From positions 1 through 56,597 of the IMG/VR virus record IMGVR_UViG_3300030419_006978: a DNA stretch of 56,597 nucleotides; one strand, written 5' to 3'. Within the stretch, counting starts at the first letter, position 1; each line of letters begins with the position of its first letter. Both the position numbers and the translations under genes were made by a program. The DNA comes from a virus. Lineage: Duplodnaviria > Caudoviricetes. Under the pieces are notes generated by a model. That model saw only the letters and a list, made by a program, of their open reading frames with translations. It was not told where the DNA came from and did no database searches. Shown piece by piece: positions 5,203-33,675 of the stretch.

Positions 5203-6116
5203 TACTTTCCTCTGCTCCTTGGGTATGGTAAATTATATAACTTTGGATTCAATTGTTTAAACAAGTTGTGCAACTCTTTTGTCTCGCGCTTGCTCCTTCC
5301 AAGTATATAACAATACTTGTGCTTAGGGGGCACAACTCTTGAGCGACAACTCTCCCTGTACTTCTTTTCTTCCGCCTTAATCTTTGTTTTTATCTCTGCT
5401 GGGATTATCTCCCAGTTCGGAGAATACTTCTTCATCCACTTGTCCCATTGTACCTTGCTTATCCCAATATTTTCAGCATATTTTCTGTACTTTGACTTCT
5501 TTCTGAAGTCTCGATCACTGAACCAGCCAGCCTTCTCGTTGCTTGGGTCAAAGTATTGTTTGGATGTCCCTGAAGTCTGTCCCAGATAAATAAAGTTGCA
5601 CGCCTGATAGATTGTACCAAGCTCTCTTGCCTCGGGATCACTATATGCCGTGAACATCCTGTAGCCCGTGTTGCGAACCATCCACTTGATTGAATTCATA
5701 ATCAGCCAGGAGCCGAGATTCTTCGGAGCCCAGCTAATGCTGGCTCCTCGGGAGATAAGTTTCTCCAGGCTCTTGTTCTCCTTGCCAAGGATGTGACTGA
5801 ACGCATTTGGTGTTGCCATAACCACCACTCCAGATAGTGTCTGAGAGGCTCTGTGACGCGCTGTAAAGCGTTCTGTTGGTCTGTTCGGCAACTTGCCCAG
5901 CCACTCGTGCCGTTGTATAAAATGCTTGATTTCCTGGCACTGCTCCTTATCGGATTTGTCCACGTAGGCAAAGTCAAAATCTGATGTGCGAAGCTGGCTG
6001 GCAGCCTCTTCTGTAAGGTTTGCTTCTTCCAAATCTTCAGCAAGATTCTGCAGTCGTACTTCGTACTGCCAGCAGTGAGACTTGTCAAAGCCCTTAAAGC
6101 GCTCGTGGATATTCAT
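5202..6116 (-). CDS. Mom-family (phage Mu) adenine-modification protein, GNAT-like fold
   Basis: FIQRHEWLG, LISRG, AYSDPEARELGTIYQACNFIYLG and the terminal KHKY...LPYP match the Mom-family pattern. Confidence 0.8.
   Translation of the reverse strand: MNIHERFKGFDKSHCWQYEVRLQNLAEDLEEANLTEEAASQLRTSDFDFAYVDKSDKEQCQEIKHFIQRHEWLGKLPNRPTERFTARHRASQTLSGVVVMATPNAFSHILGKENKSLEKLISRGASISWAPKNLGSWLIMNSIKWMVRNTGYRMFTAYSDPEARELGTIYQACNFIYLGQTSGTSKQYFDPSNEKAGWFSDRDFRKKSKYRKYAENIGISKVQWDKWMKKYSPNWEIIPAEIKTKIKAEEKKYRESCRSRVVPPKHKYCYILGRSKRETKELHNLFKQLNPKLYNLPYPRSRGK
5232..5260 (-). promoter_or_regulatory. Possible sigma70-type promoter for groEL, inside the end of the upstream gene
   Basis: TTAAAC-N17-TATAAT, then GAGG RBS. 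Confidence 0.5.
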
Positions 6117-6124
6117 CAACTTAC

Positions 6125-8428: not shown

Positions 8429-8436
8429 TAATTAGT
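8429..8436 (-). promoter_or_regulatory. Putative late promoter ACTAATTA
   Basis: Overlaps the endolysin stop; 4 nt before the next ATG. Confidence 0.6.
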
Positions 8437-9802: not shown

Positions 9803-10471
9803 TTACTCTTCTTTCTTCGCCTTCTTGCTAGCGCGGATTAGCCGTGCAGCAACTCGCTTAGCAACTTCATTAATGAGTGCCTCGTCGTCGACAACTTCTG
9901 GCAACTCTTCACCCTCTTCCATGTACGCCCTATTTCCCGGGGGAAGCTCTTCCTCGCCTTCTAGACCGGGCTCTTCCTCACCTTCTAGACCGGGCTCTTC
10001 CTCACCTTCTAGACCGGGCTCTTCGGGCGGAAGACCAAGCTCCTCTTCGCCCCCTAGACCACCAAGGTCCCCAAGGTCGCCCTCGTCGGCGCCCGCTGCC
10101 GCTGCAGCGCCCTCAACGTCAACGTCAACACCAAGCTGCGCAGCAGAATCCTTGAGACCGACAATTACGTCCTCAACGAACTGGTTGAGTTCCTCCTCGC
10201 CAATACCACCCTCTGGCGGTGCTGGCGGAAGCTCCTCTCCTGCTAGCTCCTCATCTCCCAGAGGTACCTCCTCAACGGGACCTTCTGGTTCCTCGGGCGG
10301 AAGCTCCTCTCCCTCCGGGGGGAGGTCTCCCTCTTCGTCTTCAAGACCGGGCTCGCCAAACTCGTAGAGGTCGGTTACAAACCCCTGTGATAGTTTATCA
10401 ATTTCAGCCAGCTTCATGAACCGGCGAACGGTTGATTCATTCAGTAGCGGCTTCTTCTCGTCTTTAGCCAT
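9803..10471 (-). CDS. Highly acidic, low-complexity protein; probable prohead core/internal protein
   Basis: Glu/Pro/Gly-rich; N-terminal LLNESTVRRFMKLAEI resembles the scaffold C-terminus; late motif and AAGGAG upstream. Confidence 0.75.
   Translation of the reverse strand: MAKDEKKPLLNESTVRRFMKLAEIDKLSQGFVTDLYEFGEPGLEDEEGDLPPEGEELPPEEPEGPVEEVPLGDEELAGEELPPAPPEGGIGEEELNQFVEDVIVGLKDSAAQLGVDVDVEGAAAAAGADEGDLGDLGGLGGEEELGLPPEEPGLEGEEEPGLEGEEEPGLEGEEELPPGNRAYMEEGEELPEVVDDEALINEVAKRVAARLIRASKKAKKEE
9946..10024. repeat. 24-bp tandem repeat, three copies plus a partial copy (PGLEGEEE)
   Basis: gctcttcctcRccttctagaccgg at 9946, 9970 and 9994. Confidence 0.95.
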
Positions 10472-10565: not shown

Positions 10566-10811
10566 TTACCCCTTAAGCTCAGCTGCTGCAGCTCTTTTTT
10601 TAAGCTTGCTCAGTATTTCAGTCTCAATCTGCTTAACTCTTACGAAACTTATGCCCAAGCGATCTGCAACTTGTCGCAAAGTCATGGGTCCATTTTTGTT
10701 AACAGCGACGAGGGTGCAGTTCAAGTCCTCCGAGTAGTCTAGCCATAGTCGGCAATCCTTCTGCACACACTCTTCTCCTTCTATCATGCATTCTCTAGCG
10801 CATTTTCTCAT
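10566..10811 (-). CDS. Stand-alone sigma70 region-4 HTH protein with Cys-rich N-terminus
   Basis: PMTLRQVADRLGISFVRVKQIE...LSKL follows the sigma4 pattern; five Cys in the first 32 aa. Confidence 0.8.
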   Translation of the reverse strand: MRKCARECMIEGEECVQKDCRLWLDYSEDLNCTLVAVNKNGPMTLRQVADRLGISFVRVKQIETEILSKLKKRAAAAELKG

Positions 10812-12208: not shown

Positions 12209-12470
12209 TTCTTTTAAACCTTTCCTGCATCTCGGCTAGCGTATCCTTCGCAGACTGCCAGCACTCTGGGCACCAGAGATTAACCTTGTCTTGTTCTTTT
12301 CTGACCACCACCGTCCACGACATGACCATGTCCTTGTCTTTCTTATCAAAGTCCTTGCTACACGACATGCACGCACCGGGAAGCTTATCGAACATATTAA
12401 GCTTCTGCGCCATCTCCTTTTGCGCTCGCTTCTTGGCTTTGTTGTGCTTTCTGAGCTTTGGTCTGCTCAT
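12189..12470 (-). CDS. Small zinc-finger protein
   Basis: CMSC...CPEC; start MSRPK in an ATGA overlap with the methylase stop. Confidence 0.7.
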   Translation of the reverse strand: MSRPKLRKHNKAKKRAQKEMAQKLNMFDKLPGACMSCSKDFDKKDKDMVMSWTVVVRKEQDKVNLWCPECWQSAKDTLAEMQERFKRNEVQPQ

Positions 12471-13000
12471 TCTCTCTCCATCGGGTATACGGTTGGGCTC
12501 AAAATCACCGGACCTTTGTACAGGGTGTCGGAATGAAACACTGCAACGGCAGAGGGGAACGGGGCTGCATTGGTAGAGTTGCCAAACTTTAGACGACCAC
12601 GAACAAAGTGCACCTCTTTCGCCTTCATGACGTATCTGTGCCACCACTTCGTATCAGTCCGAGAGGGAATAAGCATAACGACAATCGTGTTGTGTTTCTT
12701 AGATTCCTCATACCCCTTCCTAATCCAGTCGCCAATATCTCTACCGTAAGGCGGGTTTACAAAAACCGTGTGCCCTCCCCAGTCCTGAATCAGACCGTCA
12801 TCTTCTTCTGTATAATATTTTTTACACTTGGCGCTTGAAGGCGTAGCACACGGGTCCAGGGTGAACTGAAACTGTTTATCAAGCTTGTCAAAGAAAGCTT
12901 GCGGCGTGTCCCACTCGCCGGTCTTTGAGCTAAAGCCCACTGCGCCGCTGTCTTTACTCCACAACTTCGCGCCTCTCGCGCTAACAACTTCAGCCTTCAT
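12467..13000 (-). CDS. Phage DNA N6-adenine methyltransferase
   Basis: EWDTP, FTLDPCA, DGL..DW, VFVNPPY, LIPSRTDT.WW, GRLKF, APFPS. Confidence 0.92.
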   Translation of the reverse strand: MKAEVVSARGAKLWSKDSGAVGFSSKTGEWDTPQAFFDKLDKQFQFTLDPCATPSSAKCKKYYTEEDDGLIQDWGGHTVFVNPPYGRDIGDWIRKGYEESKKHNTIVVMLIPSRTDTKWWHRYVMKAKEVHFVRGRLKFGNSTNAAPFPSAVAVFHSDTLYKGPVILSPTVYPMERE

Positions 13001-13457
13001 CTGTGCTCCCCAAAGCTCCGTCACCACGGTGACTCATCGTAATTGGATACCAGTCATACAGGTCTCCAGACTGCGTCTCTATTGCCCTAAACGGGACCAC
13101 CGGAACAAGTACGACCTGTGCGATCTTTGCATTACGTTCAATGTGCTGCACCTCTTTTCCAACGTTGTGCAAGTTAATAAAAACTTCTCCGTCGTAACCG
13201 CTATCAATCACACATGCTCCGACAATCAAGCCCTGCTTGGCAGCAACGCTTGAGCGATTCTTCACCTCAAGCATGAATCCGTGAGGCACCCCGAACCTTA
13301 GCCCGGTAGGCAGTATCACACTCTCTCCCGGGTTGACCTTCATCACCCTTACAGCAACATCTTCGGGGCTGTAAAACACATCCAACCCCGCATCGCTCGG
13401 ATTTGCCCTGACCGGTGGCTTAGCCGATTCTCTAACTCTCGTATATTCTAGTAACAT
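12990..13457 (-). CDS. dut: Trimeric dUTPase
   Basis: AGLD, NRSS, VIDSGYDGE, IAQ, RGDGALGST. Confidence 0.95.
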   Translation of the reverse strand: MLLEYTRVRESAKPPVRANPSDAGLDVFYSPEDVAVRVMKVNPGESVILPTGLRFGVPHGFMLEVKNRSSVAAKQGLIVGACVIDSGYDGEVFINLHNVGKEVQHIERNAKIAQVVLVPVVPFRAIETQSGDLYDWYPITMSHRGDGALGSTDEG

Positions 13458-13466
13458 TATTTTCTC

Positions 13467-14069
13467 CTATTCAAAGTCTATGTTGACGTTAACCGTAACG
13501 TTAAATTTTGGTACACGTATCTGGTTAGCTAAGTTGTGAAATTTTGCCTCTTCGGCATCTAAAAACCAGTCCGCGTGGCTCTTCTCGTGAATCAGGTCCA
13601 AGAAATGTTCATCCCTCTTTCCACAATTGCGTGCCATCATTCGGTATACCTTCTGGTTTAACCTGTCTGCCTCGGCGCTATCCGCTTTTATCTCTTCGAC
13701 CTTGCCCCAGACAGAAGTTGAAACATCATGAATCATTAGGGTGGCATCCGGGTCCATAAACCTCATACCTTCAGTTCCAAAAGAATACAGTATAGCCCCG
13801 CAGGACATGGCTTTGCCCTCAACAATGGTGGCTACTGGCAGTTCAGCGTGTCTGATCGAGGAAATCATGCTCATCAGGCTGTAAACCTGCCCTCCATAAG
13901 AATCAACGATCACCGGAATGACAGACTGACCAGTATTGTGAGCCGCATTCATCTGGTTTTCAAACTCTTTCGCCGCCTTGTTGTTAAACTCGTTAACACG
14001 AACAACAACAGGTCGCTTCCTTAGCTCTGGTTCTTTTAAAAGTTTACTAAATGTGAACGTGGTCTTCAT
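13467..14069 (-). CDS. clpP: ClpP-family protease
   Basis: DSYGG, AMSCG (catalytic Ser), LMIHD (His), DWFLDAEEA (Asp). Confidence 0.9.
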   Translation of the reverse strand: MKTTFTFSKLLKEPELRKRPVVVRVNEFNNKAAKEFENQMNAAHNTGQSVIPVIVDSYGGQVYSLMSMISSIRHAELPVATIVEGKAMSCGAILYSFGTEGMRFMDPDATLMIHDVSTSVWGKVEEIKADSAEADRLNQKVYRMMARNCGKRDEHFLDLIHEKSHADWFLDAEEAKFHNLANQIRVPKFNVTVNVNIDFE

Positions 14070-15067
14070 TATATTGTCTCCGGGTTATAAGAAAAGTGAA
14101 CATCAATGTCAGAAAACGTGGCAGTAATGTAGTCGCGCATCTCCTCTTCAGATGTAAACTTAACTTTAATTCGATCATCGTTTCCGCAACGAAGACCCCA
14201 CGTACCCAGCTGTTTAAGCACATCCATTTTGTTTATGACGATGTGGGTGACCCCGTTAATGTTTGCTGCCCTCTTAAGCAGGTTAACATCTGTCCAATTG
14301 CATTGTCGCGGGCGACCTGTGGTCGCGCCGTACTCCTTGCCAACTTTCCTTATTAAGTTAAAAATGTCTTGATCTTTGGGCTGAAAATCTTTTGCGCCCA
14401 CATATGTCTCATATGCCTTGGCTACACCCCAGACGTGTCTTACTGACTTCGGGGGGATTCCATTTAGAAGTGCTCCAGCAACTGTACAATGGCTAGAAGT
14501 GACGAAAGGATAGTCCCCCCAATCAATATCAAGACCGAAACCTTGAGCACCTTCCAGTAGAACTTCCACCTGATTTTCGTTATTATGGAGTTCTTCATAG
14601 ATATCTATTGTATACTCGTCAAGCTCCGGAACGTCAGTGGCTCTCACGCCAGTCCTGTCGTACTTGTCCCGGTAGGCGGGTCCGTTGCCGCGACCCGTGG
14701 TCCCTATCCTAGTATCTTTTTCGTCTTCTTGCATGTGCTCATCAGTTATAATGTGAGCATTCTTGGCAATCTTAATTAGTCCTGCACAAACTATTCCACC
14801 CTGTTCTAATTCGTTAATTTCGTTGAAAAATTGTTGCAGATTTACGACGCACCCCGGACCAATAATGGACTTGACTCCGTAAAACACTCCAGCTGGAATA
14901 TGGTGGGTCACAAACTTCTTTCCCTCGTGGTAAATTGTGTGCCCAGCGTTGCAGCCACCGTTGTAGCGGATGCAGTGTGTGTAGTTGCCACCCTCCAGCA
15001 AATGATGGGTGACCTTGCCCTTGCCGCAGTCTCCATACTGCAAATCAACAATTATGTCTGCAATCAT
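14069..15067 (-). CDS. purA: Adenylosuccinate synthetase, short form
   Basis: QYGDCGKGK, GGCNAGHT, IGTTGRGNGPAY, EGAQG, YPFVTSS, GATTGRPR, NKMD. Confidence 0.95.
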   Translation of the reverse strand: MIADIIVDLQYGDCGKGKVTHHLLEGGNYTHCIRYNGGCNAGHTIYHEGKKFVTHHIPAGVFYGVKSIIGPGCVVNLQQFFNEINELEQGGIVCAGLIKIAKNAHIITDEHMQEDEKDTRIGTTGRGNGPAYRDKYDRTGVRATDVPELDEYTIDIYEELHNNENQVEVLLEGAQGFGLDIDWGDYPFVTSSHCTVAGALLNGIPPKSVRHVWGVAKAYETYVGAKDFQPKDQDIFNLIRKVGKEYGATTGRPRQCNWTDVNLLKRAANINGVTHIVINKMDVLKQLGTWGLRCGNDDRIKVKFTSEEEMRDYITATFSDIDVHFSYNPETI

Positions 15068-15219: not shown

Positions 15220-18200
15220 TTATCCTAATAGCCTAAAATTGTGCCTAATCGACCTCGTTGAGAAGCCCCATTGCTCATCATAATCCAGTCGTGCCATGTA
15301 GGGTCGGTTGACATGAACTGTGTCTCCAGATTTCACTCCCCAACACTTAATCTTTGTAACCGTACTGGTTGAGTCAATAGCCTCGACAATCAAATAGTTA
15401 CTTCCGTTCTTTGTCTTTCGTTTCGTGACCTTTCTGGGAATAAACCAAGAGACCAAGAGTTCTGGATCATATTCTCCGAGCGGAGGGATATAGTTCTCTT
15501 CGAGCTTCTTTCTCACGTTGTCTGTCACGACCAGACCAATCGGGAATACGCCTGTAAGGTCAACGAGGTACTGAATCTTTTCCTCTTGTGTGAACTCTGC
15601 TTCGCCAGCGAAGAACTCGATGTTCTCACCGAACTTCTTCGTGTTCTTTGGTCGCTCTACCGCCACGGACGCCCAAAAATGTTTTAGGTTATTAAATCTA
15701 TCGTCCATCAGCGTGTTGAGCGCCTGCGCACGAATTAAAGCATCGAGCGCCTTCTTGTTAAGTTTACTATAAACGATGTCCTCATTAAAGATAAAATCTT
15801 CAATTGTTTCAAAAGGACGATTACTTAGCACTTGTGCAATTGCAGCATCGCCAAGTCCCTTGATCGAAGTAAGCGGCTGAATTAAAGTTTGCCCGTCCTC
15901 GGAAATCTCCCAAACAGTGCCAGAAGTATTAATGTTCAACGGCTCAATGTCAAAGCCAAACTTCTTGGCAGTGTGGATAGCGTTCTCTTTCCTAGTTTCT
16001 GGCTCCTTGTCCAAAAACGCCGCCATCCACTCAGCCGGGTAGTTGTTCAGTAGCCACGCGCACTGGTAAGATATGACGCTGTAAGATACAGCATGAGACT
16101 TATTAAATCCATATCCACCGAAATATTCAAAATTCTGCCACAAGTCCTCTGCATTGTACTTGCTAATCCCCTTCTCAAGGCATCCATCAATAAACCTCCT
16201 GCGTATGTCGTCCTTGGCTTCGTGCCCCTTGCCCGTTCCCTTCTTGGTCAGAAGCTTTCGAAGCAAATTGCCCTCATCCAACGTGATATCCTTACCTAGT
16301 CTGTGAGCCAAAATAGCAATCTGTTCTTGGAAAATCAAGAAGCCGTATGTTTCCTCCGTTACCTCGCGAACAATGTCGTTAACGTACTTAATGTTTGCCG
16401 GATCCCTCTTTGCCTCGATAAACCTCTTGTCCACGCCAGCCCCAAGAGGACCCGGTCGATAAATACTAGTAATTGCCGCTAGCTCGGTCAAGCTCGTCGG
16501 CTTAACCCTCTTGCAAAAATCTTGAGCGCCGCCTTCCGTAAGCTGGAATACACCTGCCCACTTTCCTTTGTGGAAAATGTTTTTCCACACGCCCTGGTCA
16601 TCAAAATCTATAACATCTGGATGAAGCTTCTCGCTGTAGTATTTTTTAACATCGTCAAATGTCGGCTCTGTTACCCCATGCTCCCTCTTGAGGATATGCC
16701 GAATGCAACCATCGATCATCCTCAGTGACGCCAGTCCCAGAACATCGAACTTGATGAACCCCATCGGCTCAAGGTGCCTCACGTTCTGTCCCTCTGACCA
16801 GGGAGTTTGCCTAACGCCCTTGCTGTTAATCAGGGGCATCCAGCGATCCAGATTCTCCCCAACAACGATGCCCCCTGCATGTCGCGAAGCTGAGCGGGTC
16901 TGACCGTGTAGCGCCTCAACGTGAATCTTGACATGGGGATACTTCTGAAGGAAGTTCTGCAGACTTGCGCTAAACTCCATCGTCTCTTCAAACGTCGGCA
17001 CGTATACGCCAGACTTAATTCCATGCTTGGCTTTGGCTGGTCCCGTCGCCTCATATAACATCTTGCCAGTAACCTGATTCACCTCGGTAAATGGAATTCC
17101 ATAAAACTTTGAAATATCCTTGATGAGGCTGCGTAGTTGAAGTGTGTTCCAGTTCGAAATTGGCACCACACTATCGTCGCCCCACTCCTCAACCAAGCCC
17201 TCCTTAAGGCTCATCGGGTCGGACACATCATAGTCAATGTCTGGATAGTCTGTAGCATCGCGGCGAAGGAATCTCTCAAACAAGAGACCCCAACGCACTG
17301 GATCAATCTGTGTGACGCCCAAGAGGTATGCCACAAGCGATCCTGCGCCCGAACCACGCCCTGGACCGGTCAGCTGCCTCTCGTTTGCCTTGTCGGCAAT
17401 TGCTGCCATGGTCAAAAAGTACTTGCTAAATCCTCGCTCACTAATCACCTCAAGTTCGGTCTTGAGTCTCTCCTCGTACTCCTCAGAGAACAAGCCCAGG
17501 CGGCTCTTGCCCTGCTCGCACAAAGCGACAAGAGCGTCGTCAGCAGTGGTGCCCTCCGGGACAACAAAGTCTGGTAGCCTAACTTCATTATCAGGAATGA
17601 AAGTCTCTATCCTCTCACATGCAATCTGGTGAGTGCGCTTAATAGCATCAAGCACCAGATCGTCGTCGTATTCAACCCCAGCCCCAGCGCTGAACCTCTT
17701 GTATGACTCCCACATCTGATCGCCGTTCTTGGGGTACAACTCCATGCCCAGTTCGTCAATTGAATCCGGGAGAGTGTCTGATACATAGTCTGGCTTAAAC
17801 GTTCCCATCATAAAGCCCAGGCGCTTGTAAAGCTCTCGATCCTTCCAGGCTTCCGGGCGGGGGTAGTGACTGTCGGCAGTGACTATAAGCTCGATGCCGA
17901 ACTCTTCATGCATTTGAATTATGTACTTGTTCAGGTCGTGCTGCTCCGGTGCTGCGTTCCATTGTAGCTCGCCGTACCAACGATCTCCAAAAACATCCAG
18001 CATCTTGCGAGTCGTCTCTCGCATTGCCTCAAGTACCTTCTCCTCGTTAACTCCGGTGCGATTACCCTCTTCGTCGTACTCTAAGCCAGCCCAATAGTCA
18101 CCGGCATACACGCCCCCAAGGCATGCAGACGCTGCAATAATGCCTTCGCCATACTCTTTGAGCATCGCATAATCAACACGCGGATAGCGATAAAAATTTT

Positions 18201-18666
18201 CAGATTTAAAACTGTTAGAAACCAGCTTAAACAAGTTGTTTAAGCCAGTCTGATTCTGCGCTAGAAGAATCAAGTGGCGTCGACGATTCAATATGTTTCT
18301 AATTGCCTTTTTCGATGCCGCCTCGTCTTCAATGGTAGTGCCCGACTGCGCAGACTTGGCTGATTTCTTCTCCTTTACCTTCTCATACTCCTCGCGCCAT
18401 TCCGCGATTGAAGGGGTAAAGTATGCCTCAACTCCGTAGATGGGTTTAAACTCTTTGCCGTCTGCATGCATCTTCTTGGCATGTAAGACTTGATAGGCAA
18501 GACCGTTCATGTTGCCATGATCGGTTAGGGCAAGGGCATCCATGCCGTTCTCATAAGCATAATCCATATGCTCTTGCGGGTAACCAATAGCGTCGAAGAC
18601 GCTTCCCGCTACGCTGTGTGCGTGTAATCCCACGAATGGAATCTTTGGTTTCTCTCTATCAGTCAC
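15220..18666 (-). CDS. dnaE: DNA polymerase III alpha subunit (family C, DnaE type) with PHP domain
   Basis: LHAHS, TDHG, GRGSGAGSLVAY, FERFL, PDIDYD, KFDVLGL, YRPGP, FQEQ, YGFNKSH. Confidence 0.97.
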   Translation of the reverse strand: MTDREKPKIPFVGLHAHSVAGSVFDAIGYPQEHMDYAYENGMDALALTDHGNMNGLAYQVLHAKKMHADGKEFKPIYGVEAYFTPSIAEWREEYEKVKEKKSAKSAQSGTTIEDEAASKKAIRNILNRRRHLILLAQNQTGLNNLFKLVSNSFKSENFYRYPRVDYAMLKEYGEGIIAASACLGGVYAGDYWAGLEYDEEGNRTGVNEEKVLEAMRETTRKMLDVFGDRWYGELQWNAAPEQHDLNKYIIQMHEEFGIELIVTADSHYPRPEAWKDRELYKRLGFMMGTFKPDYVSDTLPDSIDELGMELYPKNGDQMWESYKRFSAGAGVEYDDDLVLDAIKRTHQIACERIETFIPDNEVRLPDFVVPEGTTADDALVALCEQGKSRLGLFSEEYEERLKTELEVISERGFSKYFLTMAAIADKANERQLTGPGRGSGAGSLVAYLLGVTQIDPVRWGLLFERFLRRDATDYPDIDYDVSDPMSLKEGLVEEWGDDSVVPISNWNTLQLRSLIKDISKFYGIPFTEVNQVTGKMLYEATGPAKAKHGIKSGVYVPTFEETMEFSASLQNFLQKYPHVKIHVEALHGQTRSASRHAGGIVVGENLDRWMPLINSKGVRQTPWSEGQNVRHLEPMGFIKFDVLGLASLRMIDGCIRHILKREHGVTEPTFDDVKKYYSEKLHPDVIDFDDQGVWKNIFHKGKWAGVFQLTEGGAQDFCKRVKPTSLTELAAITSIYRPGPLGAGVDKRFIEAKRDPANIKYVNDIVREVTEETYGFLIFQEQIAILAHRLGKDITLDEGNLLRKLLTKKGTGKGHEAKDDIRRRFIDGCLEKGISKYNAEDLWQNFEYFGGYGFNKSHAVSYSVISYQCAWLLNNYPAEWMAAFLDKEPETRKENAIHTAKKFGFDIEPLNINTSGTVWEISEDGQTLIQPLTSIKGLGDAAIAQVLSNRPFETIEDFIFNEDIVYSKLNKKALDALIRAQALNTLMDDRFNNLKHFWASVAVERPKNTKKFGENIEFFAGEAEFTQEEKIQYLVDLTGVFPIGLVVTDNVRKKLEENYIPPLGEYDPELLVSWFIPRKVTKRKTKNGSNYLIVEAIDSTSTVTKIKCWGVKSGDTVHVNRPYMARLDYDEQWGFSTRSIRHNFRLLG

Positions 18667-21180: not shown

Positions 21181-21208
21181 ATTATAACTAATTTCCTGGG
21201 AATGTCAA
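21181..21208 (-). promoter_or_regulatory. sigma70-type promoter, leaderless geometry
   Basis: TTGACA-N16-TATAAT; ATG begins 7 nt after the -10 box. Confidence 0.8.
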
Positions 21209-23624: not shown

Positions 23625-25010
23625 CTACCTCCCGCTTTTTTCCTTTTTATAATCTCTGTACTTTTTGCGCATTGACTCGGCTTGTTCCTTAATTGAATTA
23701 GCCATAACCTCAGATGGAGTCTCGCCGGTATGCTCTAAAACCTCAATTGAAACATTGCTGGTGTCCATAAATATTGGATAAACAAGACCATCTGGACCGT
23801 TTCTGTTCTTTGCTATAAAAACCCTGCCTGTATTGGCACTCTTGTCCTCGACGGTTCTAGAAACTGAGAATATGAAGTCTGCGACGAAGCACTTGTTAAA
23901 AGCCTCCGATATAGACTCCATTGTGACCACCTCTGCGTTTAAGCCGGAACGATTTGTCTGAGAAGCTGTCCACAGTGGGCAATTTTGTTCCTGGGCGATA
24001 GCTCGGAGGTCTTCGTAGATCGACTCTAGATCGTGCCTCTTCTCTTTGGTTGCCGACACGGGCTTAAGAAGATCGCCATAGTCAACAATAACCATGTCGA
24101 TGTCGTGACCGCGTTGCCTAAGCTTTTCTAGGTGTGATTTGATTGTTCTAGTGGATGCAGACTTAGTTGGGTATTCTTTTACTATAAGTGCTCCCTTAAG
24201 CTCCTTGACAGATTCATATATTTGCTCCTTCATGTGCACCAAATCGCCCAGGTCGATACCAGTGAGGCAACTATCATAGCGTGAGGCAATACACGTATCT
24301 GACAACTCTAGAGTGTAGTGGACCACGGTCTTTCCCAACTTCAAAGCCTCTGCCCCCAGATGGGTGAGGACCATTGATTTCCCGGCACCAGTTGGGGCGA
24401 TAACAACCCCAAGCTCGCCGCTGCCAAGCCCATTGCGACACAAAAGATCGATCTGGTCCCACCCGGTAGTGATCGGGTTTCTGGCTTTAATGTGAAATCT
24501 TTCTTCGAAGTCTTTAATGTAATCGTAACCATAGTCGCTGTCGCCGCCCAAGACGAGCGCCTCATTAATTACTTGCGCAACCTCGTCAAAGGAAGATTTT
24601 TGCAAAAGTTTAACTGATTTTATGATCGCCTCTTTCAATTTCTGCTTCTTGCAAAAATCGAGGGCAATTTCTTTTACGTATTCTGAGTCTTCAATTGGGG
24701 CTGCGCCCGAGCTAATGCGAGCAAAATAATCTCGAACTGACTTTTTTGTAGTTTCGGGCTCTGCTCCAAGCTCAGTGCGAATTATCGTGCCTACCGTGCG
24801 ATAGGAGGGGTGCATTCCGTACTTATTGCGATAATTAAATATTTTTTCAATGATAACTTGAAGGTGTCTAAGTTCTAGAAAATTAACATCGAGAACCTCT
24901 TGCATCTGGTCGCAAAAGCTTCTTTCCTCTAAGATTATTTGAACCAAATTCTCTTGGAAATACTTTCCAAAACGCGAGAAGGTATCTTTTTCTTTTAGGT
25001 TCACCGGCAC
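23625..25010 (-). CDS. dnaB: Replicative helicase, DnaB/gp41-like
   Basis: APTGAGKS, YTLE, VIVDY, TASQTNR, KNRNG. Confidence 0.93.
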   Translation of the reverse strand: MPVNLKEKDTFSRFGKYFQENLVQIILEERSFCDQMQEVLDVNFLELRHLQVIIEKIFNYRNKYGMHPSYRTVGTIIRTELGAEPETTKKSVRDYFARISSGAAPIEDSEYVKEIALDFCKKQKLKEAIIKSVKLLQKSSFDEVAQVINEALVLGGDSDYGYDYIKDFEERFHIKARNPITTGWDQIDLLCRNGLGSGELGVVIAPTGAGKSMVLTHLGAEALKLGKTVVHYTLELSDTCIASRYDSCLTGIDLGDLVHMKEQIYESVKELKGALIVKEYPTKSASTRTIKSHLEKLRQRGHDIDMVIVDYGDLLKPVSATKEKRHDLESIYEDLRAIAQEQNCPLWTASQTNRSGLNAEVVTMESISEAFNKCFVADFIFSVSRTVEDKSANTGRVFIAKNRNGPDGLVYPIFMDTSNVSIEVLEHTGETPSEVMANSIKEQAESMRKKYRDYKKEKSGR

Positions 25011-25034: not shown

Positions 25035-25820
25035 TTATTCGGGCGAAAATGTCAAGGACATTTTCTTGTCGTAAGCTTGATGTTTGAGATCACTCAGCTT
25101 ACCGAGATAATCCGTGCGGCGCAAAACTTTAAATGCAAGATTTTCGACGGAAAAAGCGCCCCCAGTCTCTAGACCAGTTTTCCGCATCTTTCTAATTTTA
25201 GCCTTAAGCCTATCAGTGGTCTTAATAGCCTCATCATATTTTTCTTCATCAAAAAGTTCTTCGATTCTGTCAACCTCGTCCATCAAGCCTGCAGACTTAA
25301 GCTGGACGTTGTATTCATCGAAATCTTCTACATATCTGCTTGGTCTAATGAGCCAAGCGTCATTCATGACTGAGTATTGCCCAGTCGAGTGGTGAGGTTC
25401 TTGATCATCCTGAACATAAATCTCCACTTCGTACCCAAATACCTCTATCTGGTGCATCCTGTTCCAGAGAGCCCTCTTCGCATCAAAGAAGTCTTTTACC
25501 AGACTTTGATCCTCGTTTATGTCCGCAAAGTTGAGTAGAATATGTAAATCTACGTCAGAATATTCAGACCAGTTAAAATTCGCCAAGGAACCAGTGAAGA
25601 TAACATCCATTATCTCCACATCTTCTAGCTCAAGTTCATAAAAGAAGTCTTCTACGATTTCCATGAGCCTCTTTTGAATTTCCGGAAGCAGCCGGTCGCC
25701 AGACCAAACCATCTGATTTAACTCGTCTTTTACTTCAAAGCTAGACAAGTCTATAGATTCGGGCGAAACGTCCTCCGTGACATGACGATGCCATGCCTCA
25801 TATAGCTGCTTCATTGCCAC
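25035..25820 (-). CDS. Pol-beta superfamily nucleotidyltransferase
   Basis: TGSLANFNWSEYSDVDLH (GS...DxD) plus VEIYVQ as the third acidic site. Confidence 0.8.
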   Translation of the reverse strand: MAMKQLYEAWHRHVTEDVSPESIDLSSFEVKDELNQMVWSGDRLLPEIQKRLMEIVEDFFYELELEDVEIMDVIFTGSLANFNWSEYSDVDLHILLNFADINEDQSLVKDFFDAKRALWNRMHQIEVFGYEVEIYVQDDQEPHHSTGQYSVMNDAWLIRPSRYVEDFDEYNVQLKSAGLMDEVDRIEELFDEEKYDEAIKTTDRLKAKIRKMRKTGLETGGAFSVENLAFKVLRRTDYLGKLSDLKHQAYDKKMSLTFSPE

Positions 25821-25821
25821 T

Positions 25822-26151
25822 TTATTCTCTTGCTGCCGCTTTCATCCTCGTCATGAGTTCGTTCGCGAATTCATCGTGGGGGATGCCAATTTGCTTCAAG
25901 ATCCAAAGACCAATGTCGACCTTTATAGGGGTGCTCTGGCGCTGGGTGATCACAGCTGCCTTCTGAAGTGCCACTTGCGTACTTTTAGGTGATAACAACC
26001 TTTGTATAGCTGGAAGAATATTTTCTTCTTCTTGCGGTGCTTCCTCTTGAGTCCGACCTTTTTCATCCATCACCGGGATACCGTTGGATTCCTTCAAGGA
26101 CCTCACTTCCTCTTTGACAATCTCTTTCAATTTTTCTCTCGTTAGTTTCAT
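25822..26151 (-). CDS. Hypothetical protein with MKLTREKLKEIVKEE leader
   Basis: GGAG RBS; helical. Confidence 0.75.
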   Translation of the reverse strand: MKLTREKLKEIVKEEVRSLKESNGIPVMDEKGRTQEEAPQEEENILPAIQRLLSPKSTQVALQKAAVITQRQSTPIKVDIGLWILKQIGIPHDEFANELMTRMKAAARE

Positions 26152-26162
26152 TCTTTCTCCCT

Positions 26163-26795
26163 CTACGCGTTGGGGTTGCCAAGCATAATTTTTAATTCAC
26201 CTTCGTGACCTTCGATAGTTCTGGTATACCAGCCGCTATATTGTCCACACTCTTCACAGTGTATCGGTCCTTCTGAACCGAGCCACTCTATTGGCTTTTT
26301 GGGACCAAGTACTTTTTGCACAACCTCTGGGTCGGTAACATACGGTACTCCATACCTCGTAATCATGATATGTGCAATTGCTTTCGACATTTCTGCATAA
26401 TATCCCGGCTCATATAGCATATCAGCTGTTTTCTGAAGGTATGCAGTCTTGGCTGCTCTAGAGCCGTCATGTCCAGATCCGGTCAGTTTAACGCCGTGCG
26501 GTTTAGTCTTGCCAAAGCGTACTACATCGAGGTCCGGATCGTTGTCTAGATCGACCCCTGTCCAAACATTGTTGTCTCCCGGTACGTCTTCTGCGCTTTG
26601 AAAATCAAAATGACCGCCGATATCCGCATATGAGTTATCAATCAGCTTGAATATTTCATCTGTTAGGTCGATATTTTCTGGATCGTGCTTGAGGTCGTCG
26701 ACCGGAATATCGGTCCAATCTCCCTTTGCTGCTTCATAATCTGCGAAGACCTTTTCATCCAAATGCTTGCGCCAACTTTCGAATAGCCTTTTCAT
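26163..26795 (-). CDS. Hypothetical protein with MKRLFESWRKHLDE leader (possible GNAT-like fold)
   Basis: ORF track; late motif 5 nt upstream. The fold guess from LIDNSYADIGG is weak. Confidence 0.7.
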   Translation of the reverse strand: MKRLFESWRKHLDEKVFADYEAAKGDWTDIPVDDLKHDPENIDLTDEIFKLIDNSYADIGGHFDFQSAEDVPGDNNVWTGVDLDNDPDLDVVRFGKTKPHGVKLTGSGHDGSRAAKTAYLQKTADMLYEPGYYAEMSKAIAHIMITRYGVPYVTDPEVVQKVLGPKKPIEWLGSEGPIHCEECGQYSGWYTRTIEGHEGELKIMLGNPNA

Positions 26796-26800
26796 ATCTA

Positions 26801-26808
26801 TAATTAGT
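26801..26808 (-). promoter_or_regulatory. Putative late promoter ACTAATTA
   Basis: Overlaps the exonuclease stop; 5 nt before the next ATG. Confidence 0.6.
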
Positions 26809-27781
26809 TTTCTGTTTTGCTCTCGACCACGATTCTTTTCATTGTTGAAAATAAATCACTAAAATTAAGCTCAACGAAGCCATCCTCTAAGGTCATAGCC
26901 CTGAAGCCGGTAAGATTAAGCTCTGGTGTGAAGTTTTCTATAGCATATTTAATCTTGCCCTTGCCCTGCACAGAGATACTGGGTACGTACAGTTGCATCA
27001 TCTTATAATTTTCATGAATTAGTTTTTCATTTTCTATGATGGCGTCGTGCACCTTGAGTCGATTGTCAACATTTTCACAGCGACTTAATATTTCCGTTAA
27101 AGTCCACGGGATTGCTTCCGATAAGAAAGAAAAGCGCTTAGCGACCGTAGCCAAGCCGACGCCCGGAACTCCTGGCAAATTGTCAGATACGTCTCCAACA
27201 ATCGCTCTCGCTAGAGCAAAGTTTACCGGGTGTATGTTAAACTTCTCCACGATAGTGTTCGTATTCATCACCTCTTTTTGAATGGGGCGAAATACCACAG
27301 TCTCATCATCGCACAATTGGAAAAAATCCTTGTCACTGGATACGATTACCTTCTGCCAGCCATCATATTTGGGACTCTGAACCACTTGAGCTATAATATC
27401 ATCCGCTTCAACCGAAGGGAGCATGAGTTGTATTACCGCGAGATTATTAAGGTATTCAAACAATCTAGTCTGTTGCCATACCTTATTTTCCATTTCCTCA
27501 TTTTCAGTAAGATTTCTAATGTCCCTATTCAAGCGAATGGGCTTTCTACCCGCCTTATAGTTCTTGTTTGTAGACTTTCTCTTTCTGGAGCCGCCTTCGC
27601 CATCCCAACAAATTACAACCTCGTCTGGTCGCGTTTCGCGGCATAGTTTTTGAAGGATCTTCAAAAAGCCAACAGTGCCGCCAATTGGCTGACCATTTGT
27701 CGACAGAGTGGGATTAACAATATATGCTCTAAAATACATATTTAAAGCATCAACCACTAATAGTCTCTTAGCGTCTCCCAT
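26804..27781 (-). CDS. Stand-alone 5'-3' exonuclease/flap endonuclease (PolI N-terminal domain, T4 RNase H-like)
   Basis: LLVVD, CWD, YKAGR, EADD, SSDKDF.QL, GDVSDNLPGVPGVG. Confidence 0.93.
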   Translation of the reverse strand: MGDAKRLLVVDALNMYFRAYIVNPTLSTNGQPIGGTVGFLKILQKLCRETRPDEVVICWDGEGGSRKRKSTNKNYKAGRKPIRLNRDIRNLTENEEMENKVWQQTRLFEYLNNLAVIQLMLPSVEADDIIAQVVQSPKYDGWQKVIVSSDKDFFQLCDDETVVFRPIQKEVMNTNTIVEKFNIHPVNFALARAIVGDVSDNLPGVPGVGLATVAKRFSFLSEAIPWTLTEILSRCENVDNRLKVHDAIIENEKLIHENYKMMQLYVPSISVQGKGKIKYAIENFTPELNLTGFRAMTLEDGFVELNFSDLFSTMKRIVVESKTEN

Positions 27782-27950
27782 GTAATAATCCCAATTCTTC
27801 CCTCCTGCACGCTGTTGCATATTTCACCCCACGCCACGCAACAATGTACAAGAATTCTTCGCCAATCTTCATTGTCGACATGATAACTCCAGTCTTGCCT
27901 GTTCGGCTGGCAACCTTATCACCAATTTGTAGATTCGTCGTCGTATTCAT
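27768..27950 (-). CDS. 60-aa KOW/SH3-like protein
   Basis: LQIGDKV...GKTGVI...YIVAW pattern; overlaps the next gene. Confidence 0.55.
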   Translation of the reverse strand: MNTTTNLQIGDKVASRTGKTGVIMSTMKIGEEFLYIVAWRGVKYATACRREELGLLHGRR

Positions 27951-28904: not shown

Positions 28905-28942
28905 AAGCCCCTACTCAGCTTATTATAGTTGAGTAGGGGCTT
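28905..28942. repeat. 16-bp inverted repeat, probable terminator, overlapping a promoter
   Basis: AAGCCCCTACTCAGCT-tattat-AGTTGAGTAGGGGCTT with one mismatch; T run at the minus-strand 3' end. Confidence 0.85.
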
Positions 28943-28950
28943 AATGTCAA
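28922..28950 (-). promoter_or_regulatory. sigma70-type promoter for the deaminase operon
   Basis: TTGACA-N17-TATAAT. Confidence 0.85.
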
Positions 28951-28963
28951 GAAATAAAACGAA

Positions 28964-29284
28964 TCAACGATGCCTTCGAATATGCCGGTAGTAGCGCGAA
29001 TTTGCCCTGTGGGTTCTCACACGCGCTCGGGTTCTATGTGAGTGATAAGCGTGTGAGTGATCGCTGTAGTGGGGTCTCCAGCCCGAGGACCATGGTCCTG
29101 GCGGGTGAAAATGCCCATGCGTGCCTCTACATACCACGGTGACTGGAATGGCATTAACATAGATCACATGTAAATGGTATGGAGTCGCTCTGTGAGTGTG
29201 CGCAACGTTTTCATGCGCGTCAGCGAGTGTCGGAGAGAACAAAAATAGCGCTGCAGCAGCAGCAAAAACAGCAATTGGCTTCAT
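28964..29284 (-). CDS. Secreted His/Arg-rich small protein
   Basis: Signal-peptide-like MKPIAVFAAAAALFLFSPTLADA; His-rich mature part; AAAGGAAG RBS. Confidence 0.7.
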   Translation of the reverse strand: MKPIAVFAAAAALFLFSPTLADAHENVAHTHRATPYHLHVIYVNAIPVTVVCRGTHGHFHPPGPWSSGWRPHYSDHSHAYHSHRTRARVRTHRANSRYYRHIRRHR

Positions 29285-29305
29285 GTTACTTCCTTTCATA
29301 TATAA

Positions 29306-31340: not shown

Positions 31341-32192
31341 CTAGCTCTTATTATAATCCTTTTTCTCGGGAATGTCAAGCTGAACTTTGCTAGAATACGA
31401 AATTATATATCCGTAATTTTTATCATACTGAGTCTTGTAAACTCCATACGAAGACCTAACTGTGTTCTCTCTAACTTTTTCCTTGATTCTCCCAAAAAGC
31501 TTTCCATCTGTTTTTAGCGTCTCTTCATTGATACCGTAATAATACCTCTTTTCCCGTGATAGGTCAAGAGGAAAAAACATTTTTTCTACACCAGTGCCCG
31601 GATCAAAGACGCCAATCGTCAAAACCCTTGCTGACGGCACTGGTAATGAAAATGTGTGTGACACAGGCTCGATGTTTGTGAACACGTTGAGCATGTGAAG
31701 TGTTGAGACAACCAAATCGTTCAATTTGATGTGATAATCAACTAGGGGCACTTCTCCCAAAATCTCTTCTAAGCTCTGATTGGACACTAGGTATATTTTT
31801 TCAAAAACTCCGGATCTGGCATATTCTTGCAGAATACCAAACACAACGCGCTCTTGCTGCCTTCTCGTTTCGCTCAAAAGTCCCGAATCGGGTCTAATGT
31901 ATAAAATATTAATTTTGCAGTGCCTAAGCTGGTGCAGTATCCGAAGGGCAGCGCCCGATATTGTACCGGAACCACCCAAAGCAAACAGGACGCTTCCAGA
32001 CACGTCCTTAAAGAAGCCTGTCAAGTCTGGACAGTTCTTTTCGTAGCTCTCGTGGTTAGGCTGCTTCGGTAGGTTATAGCAATTCTCACCGGACAGCCCT
32101 GTGTCGATTTTATACGTTCTGTACTGGCTGTACATAGCAAATCCGTCCGCGACGTTGCACCCCGCCGCACCAAGCCCAACAACGGTATCCAT
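31341..32192 (-). CDS. Tubulin/FtsZ-superfamily GTPase, divergent
   Basis: VVGLGAAGCNVAD (T1), IDT (T2), LGGSGTISG (variant of GGGTGSG), LVSN, YHIKLN. Confidence 0.8.
   Translation of the reverse strand: MDTVVGLGAAGCNVADGFAMYSQYRTYKIDTGLSGENCYNLPKQPNHESYEKNCPDLTGFFKDVSGSVLFALGGSGTISGAALRILHQLRHCKINILYIRPDSGLLSETRRQQERVVFGILQEYARSGVFEKIYLVSNQSLEEILGEVPLVDYHIKLNDLVVSTLHMLNVFTNIEPVSHTFSLPVPSARVLTIGVFDPGTGVEKMFFPLDLSREKRYYYGINEETLKTDGKLFGRIKEKVRENTVRSSYGVYKTQYDKNYGYIISYSSKVQLDIPEKKDYNKS
31350..31378 (-). promoter_or_regulatory. sigma70-type promoter for ssb-recA, inside the end of the tubulin gene
   Basis: TTGACA-N17-TATAAT. Confidence 0.85.
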
Positions 32193-32494
32193 TACTCCCC
32201 AACTACCTCCAAAATTATACGCCCCTCAAAGCCGCCCTTCGTCACCCTTTTAGCAATCTGCTCAGCCTTGAATCCGTGCAGCTTATAACACCTCTGAATC
32301 TGGTCTAGCACCTCATACACGTCTGCCAACTCTTCTGGGCACGGGTCTTCTATTAATTCTTCAACTTCTTCTCTTAGCTTGTCTTTAAGCCTTTCCAGAT
32401 ACTCCTCTTCCTCCGCTATTCGATATACGCACCTCTTTCCAGAGTTTTTGATAATCTCCGGTATCCTGTCTCTTACTAGCTTGTGGTATTCCAT
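32192..32494 (-). CDS. MazG-like all-alpha NTP pyrophosphohydrolase
   Basis: KLVRDRIPEII, KLREEVEE, EELADVYEVL, KR..KGGF. Confidence 0.88.
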   Translation of the reverse strand: MEYHKLVRDRIPEIIKNSGKRCVYRIAEEEEYLERLKDKLREEVEELIEDPCPEELADVYEVLDQIQRCYKLHGFKAEQIAKRVTKGGFEGRIILEVVGE

Positions 32495-33675
32495 TTAAAC
32501 TCCCTCATTTCACCAAAATTCTTGCCCATCTTTGCAGTGGCCAAAAAATCTCCAAATTTTGTCCGCGAAAAATTTTTGCAAATCGAAGATATTAGGGCCC
32601 GATCCTCTACAGAGAAATCAAGTACTAGACTATCATGAATCATGAAAGAAATGAAGCTCTTTTTGCCCCTTAATAGCCTATTGACCTCTATTGCCTGCCT
32701 TAAGAAGATATCACTAGCGGTCGACTGAACAAGATAGTTCACTGCATGGAATTCATCTGATTCAATCAATCTCCCGAAAGGATTCACGATGTGGCTTCCA
32801 TTCCAGTACTTCTTTTTGATAAGCTCCCTGTTGTATGTCATGTCAGCTAGATGGTCACGAGAACTCTGGTTATAGAGCCATGCAAATATTCTTTTCTTTG
32901 CCAACTCCCGAGTGCCGATTCCCCTGTAGACGTTCTCCAAATTCCACTCATGTATATCTTGCTGTGGCTGGTCTGCACCAAGCAGTGCCAACAAGGTCCG
33001 GAGTTCGGCAGCGTTAAAATCTAGCTCAACAAAGCAGTCATTTTTGGGCTGTATAACCTTTCGGAACTCCTTCTCCATAGTGAGTATCGGAAAACTGTTC
33101 TTCTCCGTGGTCAACCGACCGGTCTTGGTCCCGAAGACGTTGTACCTGCACGAATGCTGAACCTTGTTCAGCTTCTGTGCGAACTGTCTTACTTTAAACT
33201 CTGCCATCCTGCCCTTGAGAGCCGATGTGTTTATCTCTAGACGATTTTCCTTGATCTGCTCCGTAAGCTTGATTAGTTCTATCAAAAAATCATAATTCTG
33301 CGGTCTGGCATAGTTCGCAAAAACATGCTGAGAAATTTTATTTTTTAGATTGCAAAACTCTAGAAGGAATCGCTGTGGAACGAGATCAAAAAAGCAGTTA
33401 TCTTGTAAAGAGACTCTAGCCTCCTTAAACGACCTGACAAACGCCTTGAGCTTCTTGTTGATCTCAGCCCATTCTTCTCTCAGGTTTTCGGGACATACCT
33501 CCTCCAGTGATCTGCCGCCGCAGTAGAGCTTGGCATATTCAACCTCACGGTCAGCGAGGTGGGGTGCGTAGTTCCAGGTTTTACTCGCCCCGTCTGGAAG
33601 CTTGTCGAACACAAGCTCTCCATCCAAAAAGTAGCCCACGCACTCTTTTTTATCATCTAATGTTTGAAATAACAC
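32476..33675 (-). CDS. Minimal family A DNA polymerase domain
   Basis: TKTGRL, motif A DFNAAELR, motif B RELAKKRIFAWLY, NYLVQSTASD, motif C IHDS. Confidence 0.85.
   Translation of the reverse strand: MLFQTLDDKKECVGYFLDGELVFDKLPDGASKTWNYAPHLADREVEYAKLYCGGRSLEEVCPENLREEWAEINKKLKAFVRSFKEARVSLQDNCFFDLVPQRFLLEFCNLKNKISQHVFANYARPQNYDFLIELIKLTEQIKENRLEINTSALKGRMAEFKVRQFAQKLNKVQHSCRYNVFGTKTGRLTTEKNSFPILTMEKEFRKVIQPKNDCFVELDFNAAELRTLLALLGADQPQQDIHEWNLENVYRGIGTRELAKKRIFAWLYNQSSRDHLADMTYNRELIKKKYWNGSHIVNPFGRLIESDEFHAVNYLVQSTASDIFLRQAIEVNRLLRGKKSFISFMIHDSLVLDFSVEDRALISSICKNFSRTKFGDFLATAKMGKNFGEMREFKWNTTS

Follow-up and report, generated by a model that had tools for sequence, protein, structure and literature searches.

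Three Proteins Encoded in the Replication Block of an Uncultured Marine T4-Like Phage Carry Candidate Capsid-Address Leaders

An uncultured marine phage, represented by IMG/VR virus record IMGVR_UViG_3300030419_006978 (positions 1 to 56,597, the whole stretch analyzed and hereafter the window), encodes at positions 25,035 to 26,808 three adjacent genes (g1, g2, and g3) whose products begin with short recurrent leaders, or tags, and are probably enzymes carried inside the virus particle. Here, we report that these leaders fall into two classes shared with many otherwise unrelated phage proteins and that both classes have the layout of the capsid-targeting sequence (CTS) of T4. We consider it reasonably likely that g1 to g3 are cargo proteins with a capsid-address propeptide. 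A 14-residue amphipathic helix (MK start, hydrophobic residues at 8, 11, and 12, and Glu14) would attach each protein to the scaffolding core of a T4-type prohead during assembly, a gp21-type prohead protease would then cut after phi-x-Glu14 (phi, hydrophobic residue), and the freed enzyme would stay in the head and enter the host with the DNA. For the window phage, we infer docking, cleavage, retention, and injection alike, and an effector role for g1 and g3 is suggested by their folds. The link to the head is supported only indirectly, through the T4 spacing of the leaders, their gp21 motif, the protease of relatives, a phi-x-E in the capsid protein, and a g3 homologue in virions of cyanophage S-CREM2.

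The three genes and their leaders

Two tag classes were distinguished, class A (MKLLxENWRxFLxE) on g1 and g3 and class B (MKITKxQLKQIIKEE) on g2. The genes, their leaders, and the flanking genes are as follows.

26163-26795, minus strand: g1, class A leader and predicted GNAT-like body, 210 amino acids (aa), starting MKRLFESWRKHLDE
26754-26795, minus strand: g1 leader, residues 1 to 14, MKRLFESWRKHLDE, class A, ending L-D-E
25822-26151, minus strand: g2, class B leader and small body, 109 aa, starting MKLTREKLKEIVKEEVRSLKE
26107-26151, minus strand: g2 leader, residues 1 to 15, MKLTREKLKEIVKEE, class B, V-K-E at 12 to 14
25035-25814, minus strand: g3, class A leader and predicted DrrA/SidM_N-type nucleotidyltransferase, 259 aa, starting MKQLYEAWHRHVTE
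25773-25814, minus strand: g3 leader, residues 1 to 14, MKQLYEAWHRHVTE, class A, ending V-T-E
26804-27820, minus strand: 5'-3' exonuclease (Pfam 5_3_exonuc_N, E 2.4e-31)
23625-25010, minus strand: DnaB-like helicase (DnaB_C, E 3.3e-21)

The initial annotation of this stretch had placed the three genes between exonuclease and helicase and had described an L/V-x-E in each leader; its coordinates, first residues, and flanks were reproduced, and the Glu is residue 14 in all three (L-D-E in g1, V-K-E in g2, V-T-E in g3), with a further L-K-E after the V-K-E of g2. The pattern MKxLxExWxxHxxE, which it had noted in g1 and g3, occurs twice in the six-frame translation of the window, at exactly these two N-termini. 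When 731 candidate starts of the window were scanned with a hidden Markov model (HMM) of the class A leader, g1 (28.8 bits) and g3 (11.8 bits) were recovered and nothing else; the class B HMM gave g2 as its sole full-length match (27.8 bits), a second match (8.9 bits) being an internal start of the same gene. The open reading frame (ORF) at 1157, thought in the initial annotation to be loosely similar, produced no HMM match at E ≤ 10 (leader scan) or at E ≤ 0.05; as it matches neither tag class, it was dropped as a fourth tagged member.

The body of g1 is predicted to be a GNAT-like acetyltransferase fold with an alpha/beta core. Its AlphaFold2 (AF2) model has a predicted local distance difference test score (pLDDT) of 88.6, and the top Foldseek matches in the PDB are all GNAT acetyltransferases (among them 7bxz, 1yvk, and 5isv; probability, 0.99 to 1.0; E, 3.6e-4 and weaker; template modelling score, 0.35 to 0.63); g1 had no Pfam or PHROG match. 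For g3, Pfam gave SidM_N (E 9.8e-7, 28.8 bits versus a cut-off of 27) and, under the cut-off, NTP_transf_2 (E 0.0088). The AF2 model of g3 was weak (pLDDT 64), and the fold was read instead from the family sequence profile against the PDB, which matched the DrrA adenylyltransferase domain (3nku, E 2.5e-4). Within the G-S...D-x-D core, G75, S76, and D89 are invariant and D87 is nearly invariant across the family, and g3 is accordingly annotated here as a predicted Pol-beta-type nucleotidyltransferase, DrrA/SidM_N-like. Nearly an orphan, g2 had only two database proteins at E ≤ 0.001 and only one distant relative.

In neither g1 nor g3 was the leader modelled as part of the fold; the models give a helix with a pLDDT of about 50 or lower (mean of about 50 for the g1 leader versus 88.6 for the whole model; below 50 for residues 1 to 15 of g3). 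The leaders are conserved. Among 68 database relatives of g1, the first 14 residues are conserved across the 28 that were aligned, and E14 is invariant in all 28, including divergent ones that have no Trp. For g3, with 1,443 relatives, a phi-x-E lies at most 14 residues before the conserved body motif in 119 of the 120 listed, the remaining one being truncated, and in many relatives a second, degenerate copy of the tag stands in front of the first.

Spread and modularity of the leaders in related phages

The window phage is an uncultured marine relative of T4. The nearest cultured capsid proteins (43 to 49% identity) are those of Flavobacterium phage immuto, Microcystis phage Mel-JY01, and Rhodothermus phage RM378, and five IMG/VR genomes of 180 to 200 kb (G001 to G005, complete by CheckV) belong to the same clade as the window, with 62 to 75% identity in the major capsid protein (MCP) and 60 to 69% in DnaE.

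Degenerate patterns for classes A and B were searched across IMG/VR, and all counts of loci and proteins refer to the matches listed. The class A DNA pattern was found at at least 142 loci versus 7 for a reversed control pattern, and the class B pattern likewise at at least 142 loci. There were 165 distinct proteins beginning MKLLxENWRxFLxE and 194 distinct class B proteins, the latter mostly small (median length, 101.5 aa in 150 complete proteins). When 150 class A proteins of at least 60 aa were clustered by their bodies (BLAST, residue 16 onward), 100 clusters resulted; only 10 of 80 complete class A proteins had a Pfam match, and those matches were diverse (HAD, Nudix, 2H-phosphoesterase-like, GDSL, M23 peptidase, EF-hand, PGDYG, and DUF192). 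Tandem arrays of two to four tagged genes are common in both classes. Genome G005 (181 kb, complete) holds nine class A and about seven class B genes, most of them at 3.7 to 18.3 kb, on bodies that include SET, Nudix, and HAD-like domains.

The tag sits at the extreme N-terminus, to which g1, g2, and g3 all conform; from the preceding in-frame stop to the pattern, the median distance is 7 codons in class B, and in class A the distance is mostly below 15. A detector of recurrent N-termini returned, as its top pair in T4, the targeting sequence of IPII and IPIII (MKTYQEFIAE) and, in G005, class A together with a second class, MK[IV]TKxxLxxIIKEE, which is the start of g2. Residues left free by the class A pattern are conserved as well (L3 in 116 and N7 in 125 of 154 sequences), and its Leu positions are encoded by four to six synonymous codons, which indicates that selection acts on the peptide. 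Judged from these sequences, the tags are real, non-chance, widespread, modular, and under protein-level selection, and the proposal in the initial annotation of a modular, reusable tag on unrelated bodies was borne out well beyond the window.

Resemblance to T4 capsid targeting and the head machinery

Work by Mullaney and Black in 1996 is reportedly the source for the CTS of T4 IPI, IPII, IPIII, and Alt. The CTS of these internal proteins is described in PMC9026906 and PMC3012670. According to PMC9026906 (sections 2.5 and 2.6), the first 10 residues of IPIII are enough for incorporation into the head, targeting depends on residues 4 and 7 and processing on residues 8 and 10, and gp21 cleaves after L/I-X-E. 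The same review suggests the CTS as a possible evolutionary device of T4-like phages. Hydrophobic and Glu positions in our leaders are W8, F/Y11, L/I/V12, and E14 in class A and L8, I11, I12, and E14 in class B. The T4 layout MK...phi-x-x-phi-phi-x-E is present in both classes, shifted by four residues (one helical turn), and class A additionally retains the MK-x-phi-x-E start of T4.

The gp21-type protease family, PF03420, was found in all five complete relatives and in 14 of 20 further leader-bearing records, the six records without it being rated 27 to 68% complete; all seven leader-bearing genomes that are at least 90% complete have it. The window encodes the following head proteins and a candidate cleavage site.

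50552-52282, minus strand: Gp23-type MCP (Pfam Gp23, E 1.2e-72)
52106-52114, minus strand: L57-R58-E59 of the MCP, aligned to the T4 gp23 maturation cleavage site L63-T64-E65
52315-53427, minus strand: gp22-like scaffold protein directly upstream of the capsid gene, its N-terminus resembling T4 gp22 and the immuto scaffold

At the column of the T4 gp23 cleavage site, a phi-x-E is present in all seven clade capsid proteins. In T4, the scaffold protein gp22 is the presumed docking partner of the CTS. A complex prediction made from the scaffold alignment with residues 1 to 45 of g1 gave a score of 0.00 and a mark of 0.32, which speaks neither for nor against binding.

The scaffold protein of the window ends ...RRMKRLAGIKE, and the tail R-M-x-x-L-A-G-[IL]-K is kept in all five clade scaffolds. 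A similar peptide, RRFMKLAEI, lies near the N-terminus of ORF 10471 (9803-10471, minus strand), which is preceded by ACTATTTA, and MKKQILSEQFRRMQKLAGIITES is an N-terminal leader common to two immuto genes (record positions 111631 and 25470); by sequence likeness, this scaffold-tail-like peptide may be a third address tag. Class-B-like starts were also seen on small proteins of the head module, one in G005 (104393, plus strand) just after the gp21-type protease gene and one in immuto (123311, plus strand) between the portal and protease genes, and the T4 core proteins gp67 and gp68 occupy the same position. Maribacter phage Molly_1 has a recurrent leader of its own (MKTxxIKSLVES...) on at least nine small genes, MNLK[ST]LVE[ST] on two genes, one of which is its g3 homologue, and a weak PF03420 match (27.1 bits) in a 448-aa ORF.

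Virion proteome of cyanophage S-CREM2

By tblastn, homologues of g3 were found in several T4-like phages, including cyanophage S-CREM2 (31.9% identity, E 1e-27, 89% of the query), in which the homologue is ORF156. This protein is among the 52 identified in CsCl-purified S-CREM2 virions, with six unique peptides (PMC10665884, Table 3), and the products of its neighbors ORF154, ORF155, and ORF160 are in the virions too (PMC10665884). The S-CREM2 genome was scanned for M..phi..phi-phi.E at in-frame ATGs with at least 60 codons remaining, and six places matched. Four are annotated starts, and all four of these genes encode virion proteins (ORF6, an S-adenosylmethionine hydrolase; ORF13; ORF136; and ORF154, a cytidylyltransferase); the other two fall on Met codons within the sliding clamp and NrdA genes. 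The virion kinase ORF14 has the same leader behind a GTG start. The leaders of ORF6, ORF13, ORF14, ORF136, and ORF154 read MKDFDSFLEE, MKDLHSFLTE, (V)KRFDAFLTE, MQTFSMFFSE, and MKNFSSFLTE, respectively, so that five of five proteins with a T4-type leader are in the virion versus a base rate of 52 of 221 annotated features. S-CREM2 also encodes a gp21-type protease. In the main text of PMC10665884, the words "capsid targeting," "N-terminal," and "propeptide" do not occur. For a cultured marine T4-like phage, these data establish T4-type leaders as markers of virion enzymes, and they show that virion proteins can include members of the g3 family; the result does not extend to classes A and B themselves.

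Transcription of the cassette

Two promoter-like elements bear on the expression of g1 to g3.

26801-26808, minus strand: ACTAATTA, a member of the ACTAWTTA family, 5 nucleotides (nt) before the g1 ATG and overlapping the exonuclease stop codon
28922-28950, minus strand: perfect TTGACA-17-TATAAT promoter, the nearest canonical one upstream of the cassette operon

ACTAWTTA occurs 10 times in the window, always on the coding strand, versus an expected 3.07 ± 1.69, and none of 100 shuffles reached 10. At eight of the 10, a gene start follows within 70 nt, and in four of these cases the genes are those for scaffold, neck region, sheath, and tube; the motif is called late because its family precedes structural genes. 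ACTAATTA is found again at 8429-8436 (minus strand), 4 nt before the ATG of a 755-aa ORF (8424), and at neither g1 nor this ORF is there a Shine-Dalgarno sequence between motif and ATG. The canonical T4 late promoter, TATAAATA, is not enriched in the window (2 matches versus 1.86 expected).

Among 7-mers in the 70 nt preceding class A genes of relatives, CTAATTA and CTATTTA show the strongest enrichment. CTATTTA was present in this interval for 25 of the 163 class A genes and 16 of the 191 class B genes versus 0.9% of 4,000 background windows, and a sigma70 consensus was present for none of either set; the exact CTATTTA is absent upstream of g1. The structural-gene motif is thus enriched before tagged genes of relatives, a co-occurrence that the initial annotation had proposed to look for. 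In 18 tagged genes of relatives, the motif is within 22 nt of the ATG, and a motif so close to the start codon suggests leaderless or near-leaderless late mRNAs, as far as sequence can indicate. The claim that a late motif drives the three genes held in part. The motif is real, of the structural-gene type, and 5 nt before g1; that it drives all three genes is plausible but was not confirmed, since a perfect sigma70 promoter also lies upstream. Between that promoter and g1, terminator-like sites are weak only and near chance level, so early read-through is likely too.

The window has three perfect TTGACA-16/17-TATAAT promoters on the minus strand (31350-31378, 28922-28950, and 21181-21208), which suggest that the host has a classical sigma70 and that the phage has an early gene class. 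An 81-aa ORF with sigma70 region 4 lies at 10566-10811, and in G005 a 293-aa sigma factor adjoins the tagged-gene cluster.

Alternative readings

Several results weigh against capsid targeting. Among the 46 ORFs scanned in this 56.6-kb fragment, Pfam gave no PF03420, only a ClpP-type protease (13467-14069); the head-protease region lies outside the fragment. Classes A and B are absent from T4-like cyanophages that have gp21 (Syn9, S-PM2, P-SSM2, and P-SSM4), so the protease alone does not predict the tag. Our searches found no cultured carrier of either class: the degenerate class A pattern matched none of these four cyanophages with two mismatches allowed and none of immuto, Mel-JY01, RM378, and Molly, and tblastn of 24-residue leader stretches against 50,697 phage records, a search made insensitive by short queries and the low-complexity filter, gave chance-level matches for class A and none for class B. 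Against 1,652 T4 start positions, the class A HMM had no match at E ≤ 0.05 and the class B HMM one marginal match; with no profile match to the T4 CTS, the claim is "works like" and not "homologous to." The P3 residue of g3 is V, not L/I, and a pattern of MK, amphipathic helix, and Glu is simple and could serve another partner. The approximately 16 tagged genes per genome, many of them for ordinary-looking nucleotide enzymes, are far above the T4 cargo. ORF156 of S-CREM2 has a short start, MKKLISE, and no class A tag, and the authors of that proteome caution that abundant proteins may copurify with virions (PMC10665884). Finally, the position of the cassette in the replication block and its sigma70 promoter make early expression appear at least as likely as late expression.

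The tags might be an address or control signal for something other than the head, such as an N-terminal degron or adaptor-docking helix by which accessory proteins would reach the phage ClpP-type protease or a host AAA+ protease for timed removal, or a docking helix for another phage complex, which we judge unlikely. Such a destination would suit bodies that are mostly cytoplasmic-type enzymes, a cassette within an early/replication operon behind a perfect sigma70 promoter, and a tag that, like a degron, is not modelled as part of the fold. ClpP-type proteases are present in the window and in all five complete relatives, sometimes in two copies; since every genome tested has ClpP, co-occurrence does not discriminate and was set aside. 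A degron leaves unexplained the invariant phi-x-Glu at a fixed distance, the match to T4 spacing, the enrichment of a structural-gene motif before tagged genes, and the presence in virions of the g3 homologue and of all T4-type-tagged S-CREM2 proteins. A second alternative dispenses with the address altogether and takes the conserved 5' end for a promoter-plus-start cassette (ACTAWTTA and 14 expression-optimized codons) moved by recombination, with a peptide of no addressing role. A motif that stands 5 to 15 nt before the ATG, as it does in g1 and in 18 tagged genes from relatives, would mean very short or leaderless mRNAs, in which the first codons may matter for initiation; tagged genes stand in tandem arrays and hypervariable regions, and a Shine-Dalgarno-like word occurs in the last 20 nt before just 47% of class A genes. 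However, synonymous codons vary with W8 and E14 fixed and L, N, R, and F/Y kept, which argues for selection on the peptide; phi-x-E is retained in divergent family members without the rest of the tag and in g3 relatives with a second tag-like copy in front; and most tagged genes have no motif within 70 nt. We regard a mobile expression cassette as quite improbable.

It is also conceivable, at a very low probability in our estimate, that the tags do load proteins into the prohead, where these would act as assembly, scaffold, or DNA-condensing helpers or be degraded and expelled, and that they are not delivered effectors. The T4 core proteins gp22, gp67, and gp68 also have gp21 sites and are mostly expelled (PMC9026906, section 2.5), the class-B-like starts in immuto (123311) and G005 (104393) are on small head-module proteins, and class B bodies are themselves small (median, about 101 aa). 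Against this stand the conserved enzyme folds predicted for g1 and g3, with intact catalytic-type cores, which leave little reason to load these proteins only to destroy them, and the persistence of T4-type-tagged enzymes in mature S-CREM2 virions.

Capsid targeting, the reading that we favor for g1 to g3, may extend to a clade-wide address code, which we hold more tentatively, at slightly below an even chance. Two classes of 14-residue leader would then load a large, rapidly exchanged arsenal into the heads of a whole uncultured clade of marine T4-like phages of 180 to 200 kb with a DnaE-type polymerase, for delivery with the DNA. This arsenal would comprise at least 100 cargo families (AMPylase-like nucleotidyltransferases, GNAT-like, Nudix, HAD, 2H-phosphoesterase-like, and SET enzymes and M23 peptidases), and an ACTAWTTA some 5 nt ahead of the ATG would give rise, for many tagged genes, to late mRNAs with almost no leader. 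The window would be a small example of this system, with three genes.

Other features of the window

Every long ORF of the window is on the minus strand. The T4-type structural module (Pfam, PHROGs) includes the Gp23 MCP, tail sheath, gp19-like tube, and baseplate parts, and the replication/nucleotide block (Pfam, PHROGs) includes a DnaE-type polymerase, class II ribonucleotide reductase, DnaB-type helicase, UvsX-like recombinase, single-stranded DNA-binding protein, dCMP deaminase, dUTPase, and PurZ-like adenylosuccinate synthetase. The replicative polymerase of this T4-type phage is DnaE type (15220-18666, minus strand); a 399-aa ORF (32476-33675, minus strand) corresponds to no more than the C-terminal part of a family A polymerase. 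The PurZ-like protein (14069-15067; phrog_1211, E 5.9e-71) is encoded near a dUTPase-like protein (12990-13457), a Dam methylase (12467-13027), and a Mom-like protein (5202-6119), all on the minus strand, and the genome may have modified bases, e.g., 2-aminoadenine. Genes for GroEL (3634-5202), Hsp20 (1255-1743), and the ClpP-type protease (13467-14069) are also on the minus strand. Within the replication block, 28964-29299 (minus strand) encodes a 111-aa protein with a signal-peptide-like start and a strongly His/Arg-rich body.

Implications

If the tags are capsid addresses, any gene with a tagged start in a marine virome could be taken to encode a protein brought into the cell by the phage, and a searchable catalogue of first-minute effectors could be drawn from "hypothetical" genes of ocean phages. 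For the window, a GNAT-like enzyme and a DrrA-like nucleotidyltransferase would be predicted to be delivered with the genome. What has been a three-protein curiosity of T4 would extend to a general modular delivery system, and the recurrence of kinases and nucleotidyltransferases in purified cyanophage particles would be explained. Were the clade-wide code correct, the tag would be a sequence-only marker for injected host-takeover or counter-defence proteins in ocean viromes. Tag and protease could also serve as a loading system for engineered phage heads.

Comparison with known systems

The principle of the T4 CTS is already known. For the 14-residue classes, with their scale and range of cargos, no published description was found, subscription journals being outside the scope of the search, and a literature search for "capsid targeting" with cyanophage or metagenome found only a T4 review and a reference-list mention.

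Like the T4 CTS, the tags stand at the exact N-terminus, start with MK, form a short amphipathic helix with phi-x-x-phi-phi-x-E, and end in a gp21 motif; they likewise occur on unrelated bodies at variable loci, in phages with a gp23-type capsid protein and (in complete relatives) a gp21-type protease. They differ from it in having 14 residues versus 10, with an extra helical turn (NWRK in class A), in forming two sequence classes, and in their numbers, with about 16 tagged genes per genome and at least 100 mostly enzyme-like cargo families versus three to four cargos in T4; they are known here from sequence alone. T4 gp24 (MAKINELLRE) and gp22 (MLKEQLIAE) have the same phi-phi-x-E ending as the tags, but the propeptides that gp21 removes from gp24, gp22, gp67, gp68, and gp21 itself belong to structural or core proteins of the head module, whereas g1 to g3 are accessory genes in the replication block.

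Encapsulin cargo-loading peptides are likewise short and portable and bring unrelated enzymes inside an HK97-fold shell; their usual place is the C-terminus, they attach directly to the shell protein, and no protease removes them. In the phiKZ-like jumbo phages 201phi2-1 and SPN3US, a gp21 homologue cuts ejection or inner-body proteins after S/A-X-E (PMC9026906, section 3.2). As with the tags, many head-internal proteins are, on that account, processed after a Glu by a diverged gp21-type protease; unlike the tags, the propeptides are long and have no single shared short tag, the P3 preference is another one, and the phages belong to another group. S-CREM2 resembles the clade of the window in having a g3 homologue as a virion protein, tagged virion enzymes, and a gp21-type protease (its virion-associated enzymes include an S-adenosylmethionine hydrolase, an APH/ChoK-like kinase, and a cytidylyltransferase), and it differs in its Kyanoviridae lineage and in a leader that is of the 10-residue T4 type and not of class A or B.

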